Below are positions 2,148 through 49,030 of a DNA stretch of 64,000 nucleotides, piece after piece. Position numbers and translations under genes: made by a program. Numbering within the stretch: the first letter of the stretch is position 1; every line of letters starts with the position of its first letter. The DNA comes from Dehalococcoidia bacterium (GTDB taxonomy: Bacteria; Chloroflexota; Dehalococcoidia; Lucifugimonadales; Australimonadaceae), in NCBI GenBank assembly GCA_965261385.1, contig CBDHDB010000001.1, forward strand, positions 161,145 through 225,144, read 5' to 3'. Below the pieces are notes generated by a model. The model saw nothing but the letters and a program-made list of their open reading frames with translations. It made no database searches and had not been told where the DNA came from.

Positions 2148-2538
2148 CACTGCGACATTTGCCCCTTACCCCAAACTCCCAACCTTTCGTAAAATTAACC
2201 CCTGCCATGCCCTCCAAAGACGAGAACGCCTCCTCCCCGACGCCCGCGCCCTCCGACGCGGCAACCTCCCTTATGCCCATTACGCCACTCGCCTCGCGCA
2301 ACAAACACAAAATTCTGGGTGATCCACTTTTGGCTCCCAGGAAGCAGGCCACGGCCATGAAAACACCCTCCAAAACCCCCGTCTCACCGTACAACTTGGA
2401 CAATTTTCACGCCTGGCACCCAGCGAATCCCAGCGAAACGGACAACTTTTTACGCCTGGCAAAAGTGAGTTGGACAACTTCTTCACGCCTAGCAAAATGT
2501 GGTGATCAACTTTTTTCGCGCAAACGGACAGCTTCCCC
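2148..2538 (+). repeat. composite element copy A (gene-less derivative of the 47334-49030 element)
   Basis: Left box CACTGCGACATTTGCCCCTTACCCC (2148-2172). CGTAAAATTAAC (2188-2199). 64-bp remnant of the rep 5' end from ATG 2207. Core AGGAAGCAGGCCACGGCC (2339-2356). Direct repeats at 2398, 2440, 2472 and 2503, plus terminal half repeat 2526-2538. Confidence 0.75.
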
Positions 2539-2633: not shown

Positions 2634-3974
2634 ATGTCCGCCACCCAATCCCTAGCCGACTTCATCGCCCGCGCAAACACCGACGACCTCCCCGAGTGGT
2701 CCATTCACGAGGCGAAGCGCACGCTTATCAATATCCTGGGCGTATCGCTCTCGGCGTCGCCCGCAGCCGGCAGCCGGACGCTCCTCGAATGGGCCAAGAA
2801 CGAAGCATGCGCGCCCAAGGCCTCCATTGTGGGATCGTCGCTGCGAACGAGCGCCTTTACCGCTTCGATGGTCAACGGCTTCTTGGCGCACCTCCAAGAC
2901 TATGACGACACGCACTTCCCGACCGTTCTCCATCCCACGGCGCCTGTATGGCCTGCGGTGCTGGCCGCCGCCGAGGAGCTGGGCGCATCGGGCAAGGACG
3001 CTCTCGCCGCGTTCGTCCTCGGCGCTGAGGCAGCGTGCAGGGTCGCTATGTCGGTCCATCCTTGGCACTACGACATGGGCTGGCATATCACCGGCACCGC
3101 GGGAGTATTCGGGTCAGCGGCGGGAACCGGCAAGGTGCTGGGGCTCGACGCGTCCGCTATGAACATGGCCATCGGTCAGGCCGGAACCTACGCCGCCGGT
3201 GTTCGCGAAGTGTTCGGCTCCCACTCCAAGCCGATGCACGCGGCCCGCGCCGCGAGCAACGGTTTGCAGGCCGCCTACCTGGCCCAACACGGCTTCTCCG
3301 GAGCAGACGACATCCTCGGCGGGAGGCGCGGCTTCTGGGAAGTGCTGTCGCCGAACGGCCATAGCGAGGAGGCGCTTCTCGACGGCTTGGGCTCGCGTTG
3401 GGAGCTTCGGAACAACGGCCTCAAGCCCTACGCAAACGGCGTCGTGTCCCACCCGATTCAGGACGCTGTGATCGAGCTGCGGAACGAGCACGGGCTGCAA
3501 GCAGAGAATGTCGCCTCGATCGACGCGCGAGTGCACCCGTTGGTGTTCGAGCTGATGAATCGCCCCGAGCCGCGCCGGGGTTTGGAAGGCAAGTTCTCCT
3601 TCCAGCACTGCGCCGCCGCCGCCCTCGTGGACGGCGCCGGCCACGACACCCAGTTCTCCGACGCCAAGGTCGCCGACCCCACAATCGCCGCCCTACGCGC
3701 CAGGGTGCATGGCACGATTGACGAGTCCCTCCGTGAGGACGAGGTCCATCTCTCCATCAGCCTGAACGACGGACGCGCGGTATCGACCTATGTGGAGCAC
3801 GCCTCCGGCTCGCCCGATAATCCCATGAGCGACGCCGCCTTGGAAGCCAAATACCGCGACCTCGCAGGCGAGGTGTTGGACAAAGGCCAGGTCGAGGACT
3901 TGCTCGGCTCCATTTGGGAGATGGACAAGGCGAAGGACGTGGCGGCAGTGGCCCGGCTCATGACCAAGTCTTAG
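2634..3974 (+). CDS. MmgE/PrpD family protein (2-methylcitrate dehydratase-like)
   Basis: ATG 2634 preceded by GGAGG (2623-2627). ~446 aa. The N-terminus (LADFIA...DLPEW...AKRTLINILGVSL) and overall layout are typical of the MmgE/PrpD family. Confidence 0.85.
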   Translation: MSATQSLADFIARANTDDLPEWSIHEAKRTLINILGVSLSASPAAGSRTLLEWAKNEACAPKASIVGSSLRTSAFTASMVNGFLAHLQDYDDTHFPTVLHPTAPVWPAVLAAAEELGASGKDALAAFVLGAEAACRVAMSVHPWHYDMGWHITGTAGVFGSAAGTGKVLGLDASAMNMAIGQAGTYAAGVREVFGSHSKPMHAARAASNGLQAAYLAQHGFSGADDILGGRRGFWEVLSPNGHSEEALLDGLGSRWELRNNGLKPYANGVVSHPIQDAVIELRNEHGLQAENVASIDARVHPLVFELMNRPEPRRGLEGKFSFQHCAAAALVDGAGHDTQFSDAKVADPTIAALRARVHGTIDESLREDEVHLSISLNDGRAVSTYVEHASGSPDNPMSDAALEAKYRDLAGEVLDKGQVEDLLGSIWEMDKAKDVAAVARLMTKS

Positions 3975-12504: not shown

Positions 12505-12778
12505 GGGCAAAGTCCCCGACTTTCGATGAGGTTACGAGTGAAAAGTCCCTGATTCTCGGTGAGGTTACGAGTAAAAAAAGTACCCGAAAATCGACGACAT
12601 TGAAGGGTTGACAGAGGGCGTTTTCGTGGCCGTGGCCTGCTTCCTAGACCTTGGAACTACTTCCTGACCGAGATTGTTTTCTTATTGGCATGCGCCCCGC
12701 CTCCTCTCTCAGTCCCCCGCACACGGGGGCGGAGGGAACGAGTGCGGCGCCGGTTGGCAATGGGCAAGTGTCACTGTG
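12505..12778 (-). repeat. composite element copy B (gene-less derivative, inverted orientation)
   Basis: On the minus strand: CACAGTGACACTTGCCC (12778-12762). A REP-b hairpin. CGCATG remnant of the rep 3' end. TCAGGAAGTAGTTCCAA (12667-12651), an identical 17-mer to 48851-48867. AGGAAGCAGGCCACGGCC (12645-12628). Two 23-25 bp direct repeats plus a terminal half repeat (12585-12505). Confidence 0.75.
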
Positions 12779-12831
12779 CATCGGCGAAGCGCCTGCGCTG
12801 GAATGACGGGGAGGCGCGGGGAGGGCTGCGA

Positions 12832-12853
12832 GGTTCCCGCCTGCGCGGGAACC
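12832..12853 (-). repeat. REP-a palindromic element (core)
   Basis: GGTTCCCGCCTGCGCGGGAACC. An adjacent degenerate half, GCCTGCGCTGGAATGACGG, lies at 12791-12809. Confidence 0.8.
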
Positions 12854-16724: not shown

Positions 16725-18302
16725 ATGGGGCTTGGAGGCTTGGTCCTGCATACCCACGACATCCTCACCATAGCGGCGGCAATCGTCCCCGACCGTCCGG
16801 CGCTGGTCCTCGACGACCGGTCGATCACCTACGCGGAGCTGGCGGACCGCTCCAACCGGCTCGCGAACTCGCTGGCGTCGCACGGCGTCGGCGCCGGCGA
16901 CCGCATATGCATCATCGACATCAACACGCCGATGCATTTCGAGACCTACTTCGCCGCCGCACGGCTGGACGCCATCTACGCGCCGCTGAACTTCCGTGGG
17001 CGCGGCGACGAGATAGGCTACCCACTGCGGAACGCCGCTCCGAAGGCTGTCATCGCTGGCGAGCGGTACGTCTCGCTTATCGACGGGCTGCGGCGCGACG
17101 CGGAGTCCGTCGCGCTGTTCGCGGCGGAAGGCGGCGCGCAGCCGGGATGGCGCGCTTTCGAGGAGCTCGTGGCGGACGGCGAGCCGGAAGAGACGGCGTT
17201 CCCGGAAGCGTCGCCCGACGCAACCGCCGTGCTGCTGTTCACCGCCGGCACTACGGGCCGCCCCAAAGCCGTCATGCTGTCGCATTCGAGTTTCACTTCC
17301 TTCATGCTTACGAGCATGGAGCCGCCTGACCCCGACTCCGAGGAGCGCACGCTCCTGACGCTGCCGCTCTACCACGTCGCGGGCCTGCAGGCGGCGCTGG
17401 CGGGCGTCTACGGAGGCCGCACCATTGTGCTTCAGCGGCAGTTCGAGCCCCGCGAATGGATGGGGCTCGTGGAGAAGCACGGCATCGAGCGCGCACTTAT
17501 CGTGCCCACGATGCTGAAGCAAGTCCTCGATCACCCCGACTTCCAACGCCATGACCTCTCCAGCCTGCAGGTTGTGACCTACGGCGGAGCGTCGATGCCG
17601 CCTTCGCTCATTGAGCGCGCTCTCCCGCTGCTGCCCGGCGTCCAATTCATCAACGCCTTCGGCCAGACCGAGACCGGCTCGACGATAGCGATGGTCCCGC
17701 CCGAGGACCACGTCCTGGAAGGCCCGCCCGAACTCGTCGCGAAGCGCCGGCGACGCCTATCGAGCATCGGGAAGCCCCTGCCCGATGTCGAAGTCCGCGT
17801 AGTCGACGAGGACGGGCGCGACCTCGGGGTGGGCGAGCAGGGCGAAATAGTCGCGCGCGGCCCGAGGCTCATGCGGGGCTACTGGGGCGAGCCCGACGCC
17901 ACCGCTCAGGCGCTCCACGACGGCTGGCTATACACGGGCGACCTGGGCTATCAGGACGAGGACGGCTATCTCTACCTGGAGGGCCGGGCCAAAGACTTCA
18001 TCAAGCGCGGCGGGGAGATGGTCGCTCCCGAGGAGATCGAGCACCTGCTGCACGCCTGCCCCGGCGTCGAGGAGTGCGCCATCATCGGCCTGCCGGACGA
18101 GACTTGGGGCGAGCGCGTCGTCGCGGTCGTCGTCCCCACGCCGGGCGTCGAGCCGTCCGAGGAGTCGTTGCTGGAAGCGTGCCAAGCGCTCGCGCGGTTC
18201 AAGCGTCCAGAGCAGGTGATCTTCGTCGACGGCTTGCCACGGAACTCACTGGGCAAGGTGCTCAAGAAGGACCTGCGCGCCGAGTTCAGCCCCCCTGGTT
18301 AG
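16725..18302 (+). CDS. AMP-dependent acyl-CoA synthetase/ligase
   Basis: 525 aa. LLFTAGTTGRPKAVMLSH AMP-binding motif, YGQTE-like GQTETGS, GDLGYQDEDGYLYLEGRAKD, GKVLKKDLR. Confidence 0.88.
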   Translation: MGLGGLVLHTHDILTIAAAIVPDRPALVLDDRSITYAELADRSNRLANSLASHGVGAGDRICIIDINTPMHFETYFAAARLDAIYAPLNFRGRGDEIGYPLRNAAPKAVIAGERYVSLIDGLRRDAESVALFAAEGGAQPGWRAFEELVADGEPEETAFPEASPDATAVLLFTAGTTGRPKAVMLSHSSFTSFMLTSMEPPDPDSEERTLLTLPLYHVAGLQAALAGVYGGRTIVLQRQFEPREWMGLVEKHGIERALIVPTMLKQVLDHPDFQRHDLSSLQVVTYGGASMPPSLIERALPLLPGVQFINAFGQTETGSTIAMVPPEDHVLEGPPELVAKRRRRLSSIGKPLPDVEVRVVDEDGRDLGVGEQGEIVARGPRLMRGYWGEPDATAQALHDGWLYTGDLGYQDEDGYLYLEGRAKDFIKRGGEMVAPEEIEHLLHACPGVEECAIIGLPDETWGERVVAVVVPTPGVEPSEESLLEACQALARFKRPEQVIFVDGLPRNSLGKVLKKDLRAEFSPPG

Positions 18303-28374: not shown

Positions 28375-29135
28375 TCTTGGCAATTGTGAGGGCCAACCGC
28401 GAGGCGCGGTCGGCCGTGTGGCGGCAGGGGCTGCTCCTCTTGGCCGGAGCCCTCGTCCTGATCGACCTCTACATGATTTTCGAGCACGCGCCGACCGAGC
28501 GCGTCATGGGGATCGTGCAGCGGCTCTTCTACTTCCACGTCCCCGTCGTCCTCACCAGCTTCATCTCGTTCGCCGTGGCGGCCGTGGGCAGCGCCGTCTA
28601 CCTGACGAGGCGCAGCCGCGCATGGGACCGGCTCGCCTACGCGTCCGCTGAAGTCGGCCTCGTCTTCTTCACCATCGCCATCATCACCGGCGCGGTATGG
28701 GCCAAGCCCGTGTGGGGAACATGGTGGGTCTGGGACGCCAACGGCACCCTCACCTTCGTCCTCTGGCTCATCTTCATCGGCTACCTCATGGTCCGCGCCT
28801 ACGCCCCCGACGCCGACCGCGGCCGCCGCTGGTCCGCCGTCGTCGGCATCATCGGCGCGGCGGCTGTTCCGTTCGTCTACAAGGCCGCGGACTGGTGGGG
28901 CGGCCTGCACCCCGAGCGCGTCACCGGCCCCGGCGCCGAGGGCTCGCTCGAAAGAGCAATGCTCACCACCCTCCTCTTCTCCTTCGCCGCCTTCCTTGTC
29001 CTCTACGTCGCGCTCATCGCCGAGCGGACCGCCCAACGCAAAGACGAGGAAACGCTCGAAGACCTACGCCGGACCATCGACGACCACTCTTCCGTCATTC
29101 CCGCGAAGGCGGGAACCTCGCAGCCCCCAGATTAG
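28371..29135 (+). CDS. ccmC: heme exporter protein CcmC, with a REP-derived C-terminal tail
   Basis: Last ~254 codons of track ORF 27291..29135. GTG 28371 overlaps the ccmB stop (GTGA). WGTWWVWD tryptophan-rich (WWD) motif. The last 16 aa (SSVIPAKAGTSQPPD) are encoded by a REP-a unit. Confidence 0.85.
   Translation: MILAIVRANREARSAVWRQGLLLLAGALVLIDLYMIFEHAPTERVMGIVQRLFYFHVPVVLTSFISFAVAAVGSAVYLTRRSRAWDRLAYASAEVGLVFFTIAIITGAVWAKPVWGTWWVWDANGTLTFVLWLIFIGYLMVRAYAPDADRGRRWSAVVGIIGAAAVPFVYKAADWWGGLHPERVTGPGAEGSLERAMLTTLLFSFAAFLVLYVALIAERTAQRKDEETLEDLRRTIDDHSSVIPAKAGTSQPPD
29093..29117 (+). repeat. REP-a palindromic element inside the ccmC 3' end
   Basis: CGTCATTCCCGCGAAGGCGGGAACC, translated in-frame as VIPAKAGT. 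The stop codon follows 18 nt later. Confidence 0.85.
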
Positions 29136-30223: not shown

Positions 30224-30460
30224 CACTGTGACACTTGCCCCTTACCCAAACCCTCTGCCGTGTTCTATAACTCGCCGCCGCTCATAGAGAGAGCCAATGC
30301 CGATTTGCGTGTTTTCACATTTAATTCGCGCTCTTGAACGCAGGAAGCAGGCCGTGGCCTGCTAAACAGCCCCGATCAAGAAGCCGAAGGTACCCCTTTC
30401 AGCGACACAAACCACCAAGGTTTACGAGTAAAAACCCCCATCAAGAAGTCGATTTGCTCC
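30224..30460 (+). repeat. composite element copy C (most diverged, gene-less)
   Basis: CACTGTGACACTTGCCCCTTACCC (30224-30247). AGGAAGCAGGCCGTGGCC (30342-30359). One inverted iteron-like unit GGTTTACGAGTAAAAACCCCC (30419-30439). Direct repeat CCC(G/C)ATCAAGAAG(C/T)CGA at 30371 and 30436. Confidence 0.65.
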
Positions 30461-30585
30461 CACACCGCGGACGGGCCGGGGAGGCTATCTCCCTCGCAGA
30501 CGGTTCCACCCGCCGCCCGCCCATCTTGGCGCAGCCGCGCGGCTCGTGTACGCTCGCGGCATCCTGGCGCGCGGGAGGAATAGCT

Positions 30586-31692
30586 ATGGGCGACGAAATC
30601 GAGGTCAACCCTTACTACGGGGTCTTTCCGTATACCGACTTCATCAAGGACGAGGGCATCCCAATCCACGAGGCCTACTCCATCGACTGCCATACCGTGG
30701 AGCTCGAGCCGTGGGAGCGCATGGGAGGACTGGGCGCCTATGTCCACCTCGCCGGACGCTCCGACTATCTCTCGTCCTACGTGGTCGAGATTCCCCCGGG
30801 CGGACAGCTCAACCCCGAGCAGCACCTGCACGACGAGCTCATCCACGTCGTTTCAGGACGCGGCGCCACCGTCATCGAGACGCCCGAGGGCAAGAAGTAC
30901 TCCTTTGAGTGGGGGCCGTCCGCCATCTTCGGCATCCCGATGAACGCGAAGCACCAGATATTCAACGGCTCCGGCACGGAGCCCGCCCGGCTCGCGGCCG
31001 TCACCGACCTCCCCATCATCTTCAACGTCTTCCGCGACAAGAGCTTCATCTACGACAACCCGGTCACCTTCCCGTCCCGCTCCGACACCGCCCGATACTT
31101 CGACGGCGAAGGCGAGTTCCGCGAGGTCAAGCCCGGTCGGCATCAGTGGGAGACCAACTTCGTCCCCGAGCTCGTCAATTTCGAGCTTCCGCCGTGGGCC
31201 GCCCGCGGCGCCGCCGGGAACAACATCCAGTTCTTGCTCGCCGACTCGTCGATGCACTGCCACATCTCCGAGTTCCAGCAGGGCACGTACAAAAAGGCCC
31301 ACCGCCACAACGCCGGCGCCCACATCTTCTGCGTCACCGGCGAGGGCTACTCTCTGCTCTGGAAGGAAGGCGAGAACCCCGTGGACACGGTCCGCGTCGA
31401 TTGGAAGCCCGGCTCCCTCTACGCTCCGCCCGACGGGCCCACCTACCACCAGCACTTCAACGTCGCCGACGGCCCCTCCCGCTACTTGGTCTTCGGCTTC
31501 GGCGGCGCGCGCTACCCCGTCCTCGAGTCCAAGATGGTCGGCTACGAGAACATGGACAAGTCCGCCAAGGAAGGCGGCCACCAGATCGAGTACCAGGACG
31601 AGGACCCCCGTATCCTCGACCTCTACGAGACCGAGCTGCAGAAGCGCAGTCTCAATTCCAAGATGCGAGAGTTCGTCGGTTCGCGGACCTAG
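30586..31692 (+). CDS. bicupin metalloprotein (putative dioxygenase), paralog 1
   Basis: ATG 30586 with GGGAGG upstream, 368 aa. Two cupin metal motifs (PGGQLNPEQHLHDELIHVVSG and GTYKKAHRHNAGAHIFCVTGEG). Confidence 0.8.
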   Translation: MGDEIEVNPYYGVFPYTDFIKDEGIPIHEAYSIDCHTVELEPWERMGGLGAYVHLAGRSDYLSSYVVEIPPGGQLNPEQHLHDELIHVVSGRGATVIETPEGKKYSFEWGPSAIFGIPMNAKHQIFNGSGTEPARLAAVTDLPIIFNVFRDKSFIYDNPVTFPSRSDTARYFDGEGEFREVKPGRHQWETNFVPELVNFELPPWAARGAAGNNIQFLLADSSMHCHISEFQQGTYKKAHRHNAGAHIFCVTGEGYSLLWKEGENPVDTVRVDWKPGSLYAPPDGPTYHQHFNVADGPSRYLVFGFGGARYPVLESKMVGYENMDKSAKEGGHQIEYQDEDPRILDLYETELQKRSLNSKMREFVGSRT

Positions 31693-31722
31693 ACCACGCG
31701 GCTGGCCTAAAGGAGATTGCAG

Positions 31723-32826
31723 ATGGGCGACGACGTCGAGTTCAACCCGTATTACGGAATCTTTCCCTACCGGGAGTTCCTCAAGGAAGAGGGCGTCCCC
31801 GTGTTCGAGGGCTACGCAGTCGACTGCAACACGGTCCCCGTGGAGCCGTGGGGGCGCTTAGGCGGACTGGGCACCTACGTGCATATCGCCGGCAAGAGCG
31901 ACTACCTCTCCGCCTACGTGGTCGAGATTCCCCCCGGCGGACAGCTCAACCCCGAGCAGCACATGCACGACGAGCTCATCCACGTTATCTCCGGGCGCGG
32001 CGCCACCGTCATCGAACGCCCGGACGGCAAGAAGTACTCCTTCGAGTGGGGCCCGAGCGCGATCTTCGCCATCCCGCTCAACGCGAAGCACCAGATATTC
32101 AACGGCTCCGGCACGGAGCCAGCCCGGCTCGCCGCCGTCACGGACCTCCCCGTGATCTTCAACGTCTTCCGCAACCCGGACTTCATCTACAGCAACCCCT
32201 TCCAGTTCCCCGAGCGCATGGCCGCCGAGAAGTACTTCGACGGCGAAGGCGAGTTCCGGCAGGTCAAGCCCGGCCGGCACCAGTGGGAGACCAACTTCGT
32301 CCCCGAGCTCGTCAACTTCGAGCTCCCCCCGTGGCTCGCGCGCGGCGCCGCCGGAAACAACATCCAATTCCTCCTCGGCGACAGTTCGATGCACTGCCAT
32401 ATCTCCCAGTTCTTCGAGGGCACGTATAAGAAGGCCCACGCCCACAACGCGGGCGCGCATATTTTCTGCGTCACCGGCGAGGGCTACTCCCTGCTCTGGA
32501 AGGAAGGCGAGAACCCGGTGGACGCGGTCCGCGTCGACTGGAAGCCCGGCACCCTCTACGCTCCGCCCGACGGCCCCACCTACCATCAGCACTTCAACGT
32601 TTCGGAGGGCCAGTCCCGCTACCTGGTCTTCGACTTCGGGGGCGCCCGCTACCCTGTCCTCGAGTCCAAGATGTGGAGCTACGAGAACATGGACAAGTCC
32701 GAAAAGGCCGGGGGCATGCAGATCGAGTACGAAGACGAGGACCCGCGCATCCACGAGCTCTTCGAGAGCGAACTCGCCAAGCGGGGCCTCAGGTCCCGTA
32801 TGCACGAGTTCGTCCCGGCCAGATAA
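31723..32826 (+). CDS. bicupin metalloprotein, paralog 2 (tandem duplicate)
   Basis: ATG 31723 with AAGGAG upstream, 367 aa. Colinear with paralog 1 and identical at roughly four fifths of positions by eye. Confidence 0.8.
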   Translation: MGDDVEFNPYYGIFPYREFLKEEGVPVFEGYAVDCNTVPVEPWGRLGGLGTYVHIAGKSDYLSAYVVEIPPGGQLNPEQHMHDELIHVISGRGATVIERPDGKKYSFEWGPSAIFAIPLNAKHQIFNGSGTEPARLAAVTDLPVIFNVFRNPDFIYSNPFQFPERMAAEKYFDGEGEFRQVKPGRHQWETNFVPELVNFELPPWLARGAAGNNIQFLLGDSSMHCHISQFFEGTYKKAHAHNAGAHIFCVTGEGYSLLWKEGENPVDAVRVDWKPGTLYAPPDGPTYHQHFNVSEGQSRYLVFDFGGARYPVLESKMWSYENMDKSEKAGGMQIEYEDEDPRIHELFESELAKRGLRSRMHEFVPAR

Positions 32827-43719: not shown

Positions 43720-44913
43720 TCACCGCAACCCGTGGACGGGGAATACCAGGCGCTTGATCTCGTCCGTCTGCTCCTGAGCGTAGGCGCGGGCCTTGGCGCG
43801 GATATCGGGGGCGACCGTCGCCGTCCCCTCGTCGTCGCGCAGCCGCGGGCTTTCGAGGAAAGCGCCGGCCTCGACGGGCAGCTCGTCGGGCCAGTCGCGG
43901 CCCAGCATCGCGCCGTAGGCGAGGGTCCAGCACCGGGGCACGGCGTCCAGGTCGTAGCCGCCGCCGCCGAACGCCAGCCACGGATAGCCCATCGCGCCCA
44001 GACGCTCGACGGCGGCCATGTACCCGTGCGTGCTCAGACTCAGATGCGTGAGCGGGTCGTCCACGTAGGCGTCCGCGCCGAGCTGCGTCGCGAGCACGTC
44101 CGGCGCGAACGCCTCGATCAGCGGCGGGACCACCTGGTCGAACGCATCGAGGTAGATGGCGTCGTCCGTGTACGGAAACAGCGGCAGGTTCACCGAGTAG
44201 CCCGCCGCGTCCCCAGCCCCCAATTCGGCGACCGCGCCCGTGCCGGGGAACAGCCAGCGCCCGCTCTCATGGATGGATATCGTCATCACGTCCGTGTCGC
44301 GGTAGAAGGCGGCCTGTACACCGTCGCCGTGGTGCGCGTCGATGTCCACGTAGACCACCCGCAGCCCGCGCTTCCGCAAAGCGTTGATGGCGACGACGGG
44401 GTCGTTGAAGATGCAGAACCCGGAGGCCCACCCGCGCATCGCGTGGTGCAGCCCGCCCGCCGGCGCGAACGCCGCCGACGCCGCGCCGTCCGCTACGAGC
44501 TCCGCCGCCTGGACCGACGCTCCCGTAGAGAGCAGCGCCGCCTCGTACATCCCCGGATAGACCGGATTGTCGCCCTGTTCGGAGAACCCGTGCCCCCCTC
44601 CGTCATTCCCGCGTAGGCGGGAATCTCGTCCCCTCGCCGTTCCCCCGATAGCCGGATCGGGCTGCTCCTCGCCGCTGCTCAGACGGCGCACGACGTCGAT
44701 GTAGCTCTCAGTATGGAACGTTGTGAGCTCGTCCATCGTCGCCGGACGCGGCGCGACGAGCATCGCGCTCTCGTCCTCGAATGCCCCGTAGGCGCGGAGT
44801 AGCTCGTAGGTGCGCTGAAGGCGGACGGGGACCATCGGGTGGCCCTCCCTCAGCACGTGGCGCGATAACACCTCGTCATAGACATACGCCGCCCTACCGC
44901 CTAGATGAGTCAT
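43720..44913 (-). CDS. histone deacetylase family / acetoin utilization AcuC-like deacetylase with an in-frame REP-a insert
   Basis: 397 aa. GGLHHA, DIDAHHGDG and ...GGGGY motifs. The segment ...TARGRDSRLRGNDGGGHG... is encoded by a REP-a unit on the opposite strand. Confidence 0.85.
   Translation of the reverse strand: MTHLGGRAAYVYDEVLSRHVLREGHPMVPVRLQRTYELLRAYGAFEDESAMLVAPRPATMDELTTFHTESYIDVVRRLSSGEEQPDPAIGGTARGRDSRLRGNDGGGHGFSEQGDNPVYPGMYEAALLSTGASVQAAELVADGAASAAFAPAGGLHHAMRGWASGFCIFNDPVVAINALRKRGLRVVYVDIDAHHGDGVQAAFYRDTDVMTISIHESGRWLFPGTGAVAELGAGDAAGYSVNLPLFPYTDDAIYLDAFDQVVPPLIEAFAPDVLATQLGADAYVDDPLTHLSLSTHGYMAAVERLGAMGYPWLAFGGGGYDLDAVPRCWTLAYGAMLGRDWPDELPVEAGAFLESPRLRDDEGTATVAPDIRAKARAYAQEQTDEIKRLVFPVHGLR
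44601..44625 (+). repeat. REP-a palindromic element inside the deacetylase CDS
   Basis: CGTCATTCCCGCGTAGGCGGGAATC. Read on the minus strand in-frame as DSRLRGND. Confidence 0.85.
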
Positions 44914-47063: not shown

Positions 47064-47134
47064 CCGCCCCACCCGCCAATCAACGCCCCCGCACCCATCA
47101 TCGCCAAGCCCATCCGTCATCGCCACGCCCCACC

Positions 47135-47159
47135 TGTCATTCCCGCGAAAGCGGGAATC
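47135..47159 (+). repeat. REP-a palindromic element
   Basis: TGTCATTCCCGCGAAAGCGGGAATC. Confidence 0.85.
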
Positions 47160-47175
47160 TAGGACGCCCACTTTC

Positions 47176-47200
47176 CGTCATTCCCGCGCAGGCGGGAACC
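47176..47200 (+). repeat. REP-a palindromic element
   Basis: CGTCATTCCCGCGCAGGCGGGAACC. Confidence 0.85.
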
Positions 47201-47230
47201 TCGCAGCGGCGCGACAGCGGCGCGGTCCAT

Positions 47231-47291: not shown

Positions 47292-47393
47292 GCCGCCCCA
47301 CTCGCCAATCAACGCCCCCGTCCCACCAACCACCACTGTGACACTTGCCCCTTACCCCAACCCCCCTCCCCCACGTAAAATTAACGCCAGACA

Positions 47394-47427
47394 GGCCCTG
47401 GGAAGCACGGCGACCCGGGGCCTTTTT
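47394..47427 (+). terminator. terminator-like hairpin in the leader of the rep-like gene
   Basis: GGCCCTGGG, 11-nt loop, CCCGGGGCC, then TTTTT. Lies 28 nt upstream of ATG 47455. This segment is absent from copy A. Confidence 0.4.
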
Positions 47428-47454
47428 GCATCCTTGAAACAGAGGCCCCCCACC

Positions 47455-48830
47455 ATGCCCACTCCCCAAGACGACAACTACCTCCACGCCGTCTCACGCG
47501 CCCTCCGGTGCGGCAACCCCGATTGCCCGTGCGCCTCCGAACCCCCGCGACTCCACTGCCCCATCCACCCCACTCCCGACGTCCCCACCCTCACCGTCGA
47601 CTTCGACGATTACCTCGGCTTCACCTTCCAATGCTCCTCCGACTCCTGCGACGACGCCCGCATCGCCTCCGCCCTCGCCAAACGCGGACTCGCCCCCGAC
47701 TCATGGCTCTACACCTCCACCGGCGCCCAGGAAGCCGGACTCAACCCCCTCTCTCTCATGGTTCCTCACCCGCAAGACTGGCTATGGCCCAACCGCATCC
47801 CCATGGCCGCTCTCACACTCATCGCCGGATTCCCCGGCTCTGGCAAGACCGCCATCGCCCTCGACATCGCCGCACGCGTCTCCGTCGGCGCCCCTGCCCC
47901 CGACAACCCCAATGCTGCCTTCCTCCGTGCTCCCGTCCTCATCGCTCCCTTCAACCGCGCCCCCGCTTCCGCCATACCCCTCCTTCGCGCTTTCCGCGCG
48001 GACCTCTCCCTCATCTACTTCGCCGATACCCTCTCACCCGAGCACCTCGCCGATCTCCCCGAAGGCCAGTCTCTCCCGGACTACGAGGCCCTCGAGCACA
48101 AGGCCAAGCTCCACGACAGGGCACGCTCCATGGAGGACCTCTGGCAGTCCCCCATGCCCGACGAGATGAAGCGGCCCCTCAAGGTCCCCGACCGTCCTCC
48201 CTGGCCCGGACTTGACCTCCTCATGCGACGCCTCCACAACCTCATCGTCCGCGGCAGCGTAGCTCTCCTCATCGTCGACCAGGTCCGAAGACCTCGCCGC
48301 CCGCCGCGCCGCACGGCCCCTCACCGTCCTCGGCAAGCTCAACGGACTCGCCGCGCGCACCGGCGCCGCCGTTATCGCCATCGCCCACAATCCCGAGCCC
48401 GCGCTCCCAAAGGCCGCTCACTCCCTGCGCCGGACCCTCTCCGCCGCCGCCGTCGTCTTCACCACTGCCCTCGCCAGACCCAACCGTCGACGTGTCCTCT
48501 TCCCCCTCCGCCCGCCCATCGACGATGCCCCTCCCCCCATTCCCTACTCCCTCGCATCCCCCCAAATCGCCTGGCGCAAACCCATCCCGCAACGCCGCTC
48601 GCAGCTTCATCCTGCACGCCCTCGCCGGCGGCCCCAAACCCGCCGCCCGGATCAAGCAGGAAGCCGAGGACCTCGGTATCTCCAAACACCAACTCGCACT
48701 AGCCCGCGCCTTCTACAACGTGACAACTGTGAACACCCGGTCCAAGGATTCCACTGGGAAGCGGTGGTGCTGGACTTTCCCTCCCGCGCCCCCCTCGCAA
48801 GAGACGGTTCCCCTGGAAATCCCCGCATGA
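47455..48830 (+). pseudogene. replication-initiator-like gene (primase-type Cys/His finger, P-loop RepA/DnaB-like ATPase, C-terminal wHTH), two frameshifts
   Basis: Frame 1: MPTPQDD...CGNPDCPC...HCPIHPTPDVPTLTV...FQCSSDSCDD, Walker A GFPGSGKT, Walker B LLIVDQV. Shift near 48283-48287 to EDLAARRAARPLTVLGKLNGLAARTGAAVIAIAHN. Shift near 48581-48593 to ARSFILHALAGGPKPAARIKQEAEDLGISKHQLALARAF...KRWCWTFPP. Confidence 0.7.
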
Positions 48831-48932
48831 ATTACAGAACAAACATCAGTCAGGAAGTAGTTCCAATACCCAGGAAGCAGGCCACGGCCATAAAAACACG
48901 CCCCGCCAGCCCTGTTTTCGCATGTTTTTCCG

Positions 48933-49030
48933 GGAAGTTTTGACTCGTAAGCCAATGGGAGACTCGGGAATTTTTTACTCGTAGCAAAAATGAGGTGGGG
49001 AACTTTTTTCACCCAACGGGGAACTTCCCG
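48933..49030 (+). repeat. iteron-like direct repeat array
   Basis: GGGAAGTTTTGACTCGTAAGC (48933), GGGAATTTTTTACTCGTAGC (48967), GGGGAACTTTTTTCACCCAAC (48998), terminal half GGGGAACTTCCC (49019). Spacing is 34, 31 and 21 nt. Confidence 0.7.

Follow-up and report, generated by a model that had tools for sequence, protein, structure and literature searches.

A non-coding repeat upstream of a prpD-family gene in Dehalococcoidia: probable membership of an amplified, internally deleted subfamily of a single-gene AAA_25 unit

The window analysed here is a stretch of 64,000 nucleotides from a Dehalococcoidia bacterium (contig CBDHDB010000001.1, positions 161,145 to 225,144). It is chromosomal DNA from a genome of ~65% GC and carries gyrA, groEL and ribosomal protein genes together with an MmgE/PrpD-family gene (2634–3974, + strand; Pfam PF03972 and PF19305). 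Upstream of this prpD-family gene, and co-oriented with it, lies a non-coding element of ~390 bp (~2148–2538, +), here called copy A, which is the subject of this report. The end of copy A (~2536–2538) falls ~95 bp short of the prpD start codon at 2634, as had been noted in a preliminary description made from the letters of the window alone. A scan of the window at the Rfam gathering threshold matched no family, so that copy A corresponds to no known RNA; nor did a search for tRNA genes detect any in the window.

Copy A opens with a promoter-like left box (2148–2199, +; CACTGCGACATTTGCCCCTTACCCC) in which TTACCC is separated by an 18-nt spacer from TAAAAT at 2190–2195. A pattern search for the left box hit 3 sites in the window, with 0 expected, and the TAnnnT hexamer was found at a constant distance from the box in all copies. 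The box is followed by a non-coding remnant of the 5' end of an AAA_25 gene (2207–2299, +), whose alignment is clear to 2270 and degenerate to ~2299, and then by a region (2300–2338, +) that matches the sequence directly behind the stop codon of full-length units and contains a copy of the repeat half-site GGTGATCCACTTTT, the repeat D4 pairing 2318–2331 with 2501–2514. The conserved box AGGAAGCAGGCCACGGCC (GGCC-N2-GGCC; 2339–2356, +) is common to all element classes and invariant in the alignments, and its pattern was matched 4 times in the window against 0.18 expected. The element closes with an array of four direct repeats and a terminal half-repeat (2385–2538, +; GGACAACTTTTT-ACGCCTGGCAAAA), which has a period of ~32–33 bp, wider gaps of ~43–54 bp at both array ends, a terminus ...ACGGACAGCTTCC at ~2536 and a GC content of 49–54% compared to ~65% for the genome. 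An open reading frame (ORF) of 248 amino acids (2159–2905, +) crosses copy A and extends into prpD; the paralogous copies do not conserve it, and it is a spurious product of the stop-poor, C-rich repeat.

The preliminary description had read copy A as a shortened form of copy D (47334–49030, +), a unit elsewhere in the window that contains a "rep-like" gene, and had named shuffled sequence as the yardstick for the similarity between 2207–2270 and the gene start at 47455–47521. This comparison gave a global score (free ends) of 50 and a local score of 53, compared to 6.0 ± 3.3 and 16.3 ± 2.6 respectively for dinucleotide shuffles, of which 0 in 2000 reached the observed value in either mode. 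The similarity is therefore real. The block order described earlier was recovered by blastn as four colinear matches, at the left box (2147–2213 with 47333–47399, 81% identity), the gene start (2199–2266 with 47447–47518, 78% over 72 nt, E = 3e-9), the conserved box (2336–2366 with 48869–48899, 97%) and the direct repeats (2479–2537 with 48971–49029, 75%). The gene-start block scored higher against intact relatives from other genomes, designated L001 (80%, E = 1.6e-12) and L002 (E = 2e-11). Copies A and D are colinear except for two gaps, one being a 47-nt hairpin region in the 5' untranslated region (5'UTR; 47400–47446) and the other a ~1.3-kb stretch missing from A that spans ~codon 22–33 to the stop codon. 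The deletion junction in copy A lies at ~2290–2300, and copy A rejoins the post-gene region, as had been described, at AACAAACA (2300) and CCCAGGAAGCAGG (2336).

When 185,579 species-representative genomes were searched for exact matches to the left box, 47 loci were identified, ~39 of them in four Dehalococcoidia metagenome-assembled genomes and the others scattered single hits in unrelated taxa. Among the ~39, six or seven are full length, with the conserved box ~1.55 kb downstream and a gene between, and ~30 are short, with the box 138–208 nt downstream; two more have it at ~350–370 nt, and copy A at ~185 nt. Gene-less copies thus stand to gene-bearing ones as ~5–8 to 1. Copy A belongs to a subfamily, 1a, together with L014, L020, L034, L047, L049, L052 and L053. 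Compared with the nearest full-length unit, L037, the 1a members keep gene positions −3 to ~+65–100 and pass within a few bases into post-stop sequence, and all of them are without the 5'UTR hairpin. Their flanks are distinct save for two orthologous pairs, giving at least five loci in three genomes with one junction, and the pairwise identity is 67–87%. The presence of one junction at different loci indicates that the short form was itself copied after the deletion. No conserved ORF was found among the 1a members; the frames that open at the retained ATG are unlike one another and run to stop codons at varying positions. A second subfamily, the class-2 subfamily to which another window copy (copy C) belongs, comprises 13 copies with the junction ATGCC / post-stop, while the other class-1 short copies have different 5' junctions and in all of them everything from the stop codon onward is kept. 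Variable loss of the ORF with a constant left box and 3' module is what cis-acting requirements would produce.

The parent is a single-gene unit of ~1.7 kb confined to a clade of Dehalococcoidia (Chloroflexota). It has four parts, namely the left box, a gene for a zinc (Zn)/AAA_25/winged-helix protein, a GGCC-N2-GGCC box within an inverted repeat and 3–5 direct ~33-bp repeats, and intact relatives in other genomes (L001–L004, L016 and L037) have the same layout as copy D. The left box of the family reads GACAYTTGCCCCTTACCCC, with the TAnnnT hexamer at fixed spacing after it, and is present upstream of every family gene including the 47%-identical relatives; the conserved box reads GGAAGCAGGCC(R)(Y)GGCC. 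Two types of right module were distinguished. In type I, 3–5 direct repeats with a period of ~33 bp go with a protein C-terminus ...WCWTxPP, the repeats in these units being direct GGGAAC/CAACAAC...ACTCGTA. In type II, CAAGAAGCCGA sites and a box at the tip of a 48-nt stem-loop go with a C-terminus ...AWLWSLP. The half-site that precedes the box changes in step with the repeats, GGGAAGTTC occurring with GGGAAC repeats and GATCAACTT with GGACAAC repeats, and L002 (type I) departs both in the putative recognition helix and in the repeat half-site. In the class-2 box stem-loop, 3 of the 8 outer pairs have compensatory changes. For class 1, to which copy A belongs, RNAalifold predicted no structure, and covariation of the GAGAC/GTCTC inverted repeat was no better than in shuffles.

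The flanking genes vary at every full-length locus, and no integrase or transposase recurred beside the units when these loci were searched for one. Genes of IS30-like and IS110-like insertion sequences (IS) nearby were considered as possible parts of the unit and rejected, being separate insertions in palindromes of the repetitive extragenic palindrome (REP) type. A GC-rich hairpin followed by T5 (GGCCCTGGG...CCCGGGGCCTTTTT) was observed in the 5'UTR at window positions 47394–47428 and in L001, L003, L037, L041 and L050. It is present in many of the full-length units, between the promoter-like box and the start codon, and is deleted in the subfamily of copy A; it looks like an attenuator or terminator. 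In L037 (~3170–3210) a REP (CCGTCATTCCCGCGCAGGCGGGAATCC) is inserted in frame in the last codons of the otherwise intact gene and alters the C-terminal tail, and downstream of L003 the sequence CCCCTTACCCCAACC resembles a solo left box. The start of the conserved box in copy A (GGAAGCAGGCC, 2340–2350) is 82% complementary to the right terminus (GGACAGCTTCC, 2526–2536), which the class-2 termini (TTTGCTCCC) resemble; this may be chance, or may mark short inverted ends belonging to the 3' module.

The alignment of 54 family members revealed eight invariant Cys/His within the first 65 residues, an invariant Walker A motif (GxPxSGKT) and a Walker B-like motif (DQxE). AAA_25 (PF13481) was the sole Pfam match above the curated cut-off in the one gene of the full-length units. 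In an AlphaFold model (predicted local distance difference test, pLDDT, of 77) a Zn domain at the N-terminus precedes a RecA-like core, and the C-terminal domain resembles a winged helix; Foldseek matched the core to ring ATPases of the KaiC/RecA class (E = 1e-8 to 1e-9). When the N-terminal domain was modelled alone (pLDDT 82), Foldseek gave no match to a PDB fold (best E 1.9); its identification as a CHC2 primase zinc finger is unsupported by this model, and Pfam detected no primase domain. A profile search of 1.84 billion representatives returned only a few 50%-identity clusters with this exact architecture. Six more distant hits were examined. In five of them the AAA_25 core alone was recognised, the proteins being longer, and the sixth (P0317) is a fusion of Prim-Pol, PriCT and AAA_25. 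Searches of PHROGs, NCBIfam and PADLOC gave matches at the level of the P-loop only, and by the PADLOC result this is not a known defence protein. A sequence search of the PDB returned nothing below E = 0.05. No match to the intact protein was found by tblastn in a plasmid collection and no relative of the family protein in a scan of viral contigs, indicating that the unit is neither viral nor plasmid-borne. The term "rep-like" used in the preliminary description therefore stands for an AAA_25 ATPase of RecA fold and no further; it is a reasonable label, and a replication or mobility activity of the full unit is a prediction.

Ten orthologous loci were retrieved using the ribosomal protein L27 of the window, among them L064, which is the window's own contig (ENA ERZ25069191 ctg583922). 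The preliminary description had proposed that prpD orthologues in related genomes be checked for the insert, and sister clades were indeed found to be without it. L064, L062, L058 and L057 carry copy A upstream of prpD, the orthologues in L057 and L058 being 93–95% identical to A. Copy A is absent from six related loci (L059, L060, L065, L066, L007 and L008); the OZ244741 clade, whose PrpD is 96% identical, is without it, as are L066 and the 82%-identical L007 and L008. In OZ252088 (L063) another, degenerate element occupies the prpD-upstream site. This third element type lies upstream of both prpD and gyrA in L063 and has the left box GACA(T/C)TTGC(C/T)CCTTCCCCCATCCC, TACCATGG, with CACGGCC...TAAA motifs and AT-rich GATTCTTGG repeats. 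In L066, upstream of prpD and with no copy A, ~eight short direct repeats with TGTCGCA (GTGTCGCATTAGTGTCGCAAAGTGTC...) were seen at ~17830–17960 on the reverse strand.

The copies lie almost always just upstream of a host gene, which in the window is prpD, gyrA or a cupin gene. With genes called by a crude GC-frame caller that has at least one known error, 29 of the 33 copies with a predicted downstream gene are directed toward it, as are 14 of 15 in OZ252088; among copies with database gene calls, co-orientation was found in 9 of 10. One repeat unit of copy A contains a sigma70-like sequence (TGGACA-16-CAAAAT, 2471–2498; 1 found against 0.1 expected). The conserved promoter region of prpD itself (GGCTATACT...) lies downstream of copy A and is the same in orthologues that have no copy A.

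Three other copies are present in the window. Copy B (12505–12777, −) is gene-less and consists of a left box, a REP insert, a conserved box (12645–12628) and repeats; it lies in the groEL–gyrA gap, co-oriented with gyrA. Copy B is found at the orthologous site in seven genomes and so is older. The possibility that the gyrA-upstream copy in OZ244741 still bears a gene was rejected, the full locus holding a short copy only. The intergenic region around copy B in L062, from another sample, is nearly identical to that of the window except that the window contig is without ~100 bp including a TACAAT hexamer (~12700–12760, −), a stretch that L062 keeps. Copy C (30224–30462, +) is a gene-less class-2 copy upstream of a cupin gene; it has the junction ATGCC / post-stop sequence, and its conserved box (30342–30359) lies at the tip of the 48-nt stem-loop and is followed by CAAGAAGCCGA sites. 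Directly downstream of copy C are tandem paralogous cupin-domain genes (30586–31692 and 31717–32826), which form a 300-nt repeat of 79% identity at a spacing of 1137 nt.

Copy D carries the gene and both end modules: the left box (47337–47358), TAAAAT (47376–47381), the 5'UTR hairpin plus T5 (47394–47428), an AAA_25 pseudogene (47455–48830), the conserved box (48872–48889) and the repeats (48925–49030), all on the + strand. Relative to the intact L001 gene, to which it is 87% identical, the D gene has a 1-bp insertion (+1) at ~48285 and a 65-bp deletion at ~48588, and is consequently a pseudogene. Its called ORF of 461 amino acids (P0002) is a frameshift product; when frame-corrected the gene encodes a protein of 456 amino acids that matches Pfam AAA_25 with E = 1.6e-13. 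The same ORF is truncated in other assemblies too (P0002, P0007 and P0008), which suggests that the first lesion is not a sequencing error of this one assembly. The repeats of copy D are of the GGGAA...ACTCGTA type and those of copy A of the GGACAAC...ACGCCTGG type, so that D is not the cognate of A, and no full-length unit with the repeat type of A was found among the loci examined. The earlier proposal of an autonomous/non-autonomous pair is thus supported for copy A, as an internal-deletion derivative whose junction recurs elsewhere, and not supported for copy D, a pseudogene of another repeat type, as its partner. The D locus is syntenic with L004, whose gap holds a type II unit in the opposite orientation with a protein of 62% identity, which suggests that the gap was occupied on independent occasions.

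A REP-like palindrome (GTCATTCCCGCGCAGGCGGGAAC; 2074–2114, +) lies ~45 bp upstream of copy A, outside the element, and REPs also adjoin copies B and D and the copies at many other loci. The REP-like family in the window (GTCATTCCCGCG-nnn-GCGGGAA(C/T)C) was located at 1959–1999, 2074–2114, 12825–12851 (−), 29090–29130, 44598–44638 and 47132–47213, and 5 of the 7 window copies are within ~150 bp upstream of the left box of an element. The REP core ATTCCC-N8-GGGAAT is that of the Neisseria dRS3 repeat. Insertions into these REPs were seen in related genomes at L003 (6804–7870), L004 (6727–7775), L002 (4321–5268) and L061 (16545–18498). They comprise an IS30-like element of 334 amino acids (HTH_38/rve), inside the REP and adjoining the units, and IS110-type genes (DEDD_Tnp_IS110), which share these REP arrays and are also found in L061 at the site upstream of prpD. 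Insertion thus seems to favour the REPs as hot spots. An unrelated miniature inverted-repeat transposable element (MITE) of ~120 bp with terminal inverted repeats (TIRs) of ~20 bp (AACTGTTCAGAGTTGATGAGG ... CCTCATCAACTCTGAACAGTT) abuts the right end of L028, L029, L030 and L043, and in L028 and L043 the left end too; it is also present upstream of gyrA in L063. Flanking repeats of ~22 bp at L028, L029 and L043 were examined as attachment (att) sites or target duplications and were found to be the TIRs of this MITE.

From the homology, the shared junction, the copy numbers, the presence and absence at orthologous sites, the orientation bias and the domain make-up, all of which are observed, a history of copy A can be proposed. 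One deletion in the ancestor of its subfamily would have removed the ORF from ~nt +100 to the stop codon and a second the 5'UTR hairpin; the short form would then have been copied to several loci, and one short copy would have reached the site upstream of prpD in the window's lineage and later drifted. The direct repeats and the box are predicted to be binding sites for the C-terminal domain of the cognate proteins, in the manner of a Rep protein and the iterons of its origin. If they are, the short copies would need a protein provided in trans, and its source would be a gene-bearing copy whose repeat type matches theirs, which is not copy D. The left box may drive transcription through the unit toward the downstream host gene. 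Copy A is thus probably a ~390-bp non-coding member of an amplified, internally deleted subfamily, derived from a ~1.7-kb single-gene parent and copied as a short form, and this reading is put forward with some reserve. A bolder extension of it is rather improbable. It would make the 1.7-kb unit a new kind of prokaryotic selfish element whose sole protein is a Zn-domain/RecA-like ATPase/winged-helix fusion, there being no transposase, integrase or HUH nuclease. That protein would recognise the direct-repeat array and, aided by the host, would replicate and spread the unit as well as the gene-less derivatives, which would land preferentially in promoter-proximal, REP-rich intergenic DNA and feed transcription into host genes.

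Several observations weigh against the main reading of copy A. No TIRs linking the ends of A or D were found even with a 6-nt seed, and no repeated bases flank ~15 class-1 copies, a negative result obtained with no exact empty site for comparison owing to REP turnover. The unit encodes no enzyme able to cut and join DNA. These results also qualify the earlier description of the pair as MITE-like: copy A is short, non-coding and multi-copy, and the two ends of the aligned copies are unlike each other, with no TIRs or target duplication seen and no transposase or integrase in the parent, so that copy A is not a MITE in the strict sense. No base-exact empty site for copy A could be recovered, the intergenic regions having been remodelled by REP turnover, and the copies are 13–33% diverged without sign of recent movement. 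The tracking of module type with C-terminal domain type involves two types of each in two or three clades only. The relatives L005 and L009 (47–50% identity) have the left box and no box-and-repeat module and are syntenic beside Rieske genes in two genomes, for which reason the genes of the family, taken together, may be ordinary chromosomal paralogues. In addition, a composite of the flanking MITEs may have moved the class-2 copies that they adjoin, which would be passive movement.

Such passive spread could also be proposed for the family at large, the units having no mobility of their own and being carried as passengers in composite structures of MITEs or IS, or relocated through recombination mediated by REPs. 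The MITE at the right of L028, L029, L030 and L043, on both sides in L028 and L043, the IS30-like and IS110-like insertions into REPs adjoining units, and the REPs that precede the left box by 10–60 bp in many copies are all in keeping with this. Most copies, however, have no flanking element, similarity ends sharply at the left box and at ...AACTTCC, and both end modules are consistently kept, which points to cis requirements of the unit's own; we consider passive spread decidedly unlikely. Decay in place, with copy A a relic of a full-length unit at prpD that lost its gene there and short forms that never propagated, is less likely still. A deletion series exists, in that L050 keeps ~81 codons, copy B has lost a further 100 bp and copy C has an extra slippage deletion, and both D and L040 are decaying pseudogenes. 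Independent deletions would nevertheless not hit identical end points, and the same two deletions and junction recur with different flanks at no fewer than five loci in three genomes, with thirteen class-2 copies sharing the junction ATGCC / post-stop. As to the similarity itself, both regions are strongly C-rich (GC skew ~−0.4 to −0.5), which might suggest a chance resemblance of high-GC sequences. This was refuted by the dinucleotide-preserving shuffles, none of the 2000 reaching the observed score, and by the independent intact genes, which match even better, so that chance can be given next to no credence.

A further alternative concerns function and is compatible with copy A being a deletion derivative. 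The family proteins could be ATP-dependent DNA-binding regulators and the left box and array a portable promoter/operator, forming a dispersed regulatory cassette that places prpD under control in trans. This would account for the strong bias of the copies to sit 100–300 bp upstream of a host gene and co-oriented with it, and it fits the sigma70-type match in one repeat unit of copy A, the retention of the left box and fixed-spacing TAnnnT even upstream of 47%-identical genes, the distant members in synteny beside Rieske oxygenase genes without repeats, and the lack of relatives in the plasmid and viral collections. Set against this, prpD retains its own conserved promoter region, the same where copy A is absent, the ATPase is nearest to AAA_25 proteins of the replicative-helicase type, and the copying of the cassette is left unexplained. 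To our knowledge there is also no regulator family of this architecture. A regulatory cassette is accordingly regarded as possible but doubtful. No account of this repeat family was found in a literature search, and as far as the searches show the parent unit is unusual and undescribed.

If the short copies were mobilised, the family would have reached tens of copies per genome without a recognisable recombinase, implying either that an AAA_25/Zn-domain protein has a DNA-mobility activity so far unrecognised, or that a helper is encoded at another place. The placement and co-orientation at host genes make the units candidate dispersed promoter/operator cassettes, which could tie unrelated genes to one family of predicted ATP-dependent DNA-binding proteins. 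For annotation, repeat masking of these blocks of ~240–400 bp is advisable in the Dehalococcoidia concerned, which are uncultured and little studied.

When the family is compared with known systems, the short copies share several features with MITEs and other non-autonomous derivatives such as the Correia/NEMIS elements of Neisseria. They are short, non-coding, multi-copy and intergenic, keep both ends of the parent, have a junction common to the copies, outnumber the full-length form and may influence neighbouring genes. They differ in that the unit has no TIRs, detectable target duplication or transposase, and its ends are asymmetric, one carrying a promoter-like box and the other an array of direct repeats. 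The REPs and bacterial interspersed mosaic elements (BIMEs) are likewise abundant and intergenic, and the units cluster with the REP-like palindromes of this genome; the unit is much longer than these, modular and derived from a protein-coding unit rather than a simple palindrome. Phage satellites provide Rep–origin pairs such as the Rep protein of Staphylococcus aureus pathogenicity islands (SaPI), with iterons just 3' of rep, and the alpha protein of P4 with its ori/crr repeats. As in these, a hexameric-helicase-type ATPase with a C-terminal DNA-binding domain, predicted in the present case, is followed by direct repeats right downstream of the gene, and the site type appears to track the type of C-terminal domain. 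The unit differs from the satellites in having no integrase, packaging or interference genes, primase domain or tRNA/att site, and in occurring in tens of copies per genome that are mostly gene-less. It also resembles an iteron-type Rep/origin module in its AAA_25 ATPase of RecA fold and in having at least three direct repeats beside the gene in a stretch of lower G+C.

The RepA protein of the IncQ plasmid RSF1010 is a helicase of the AAA_25 type. Satellite plasmids of RSF1010 are reported to be deletion derivatives without rep that keep the iteron origin and parasitise the Rep proteins of the full plasmid (PMC6925257). The satellites are free plasmids, unlike the copies described here, which are all chromosomal and dispersed. 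The likeness is that an AAA_25-type gene is lost and the adjacent iteron-like array is kept, from which reliance on a protein in trans would follow.

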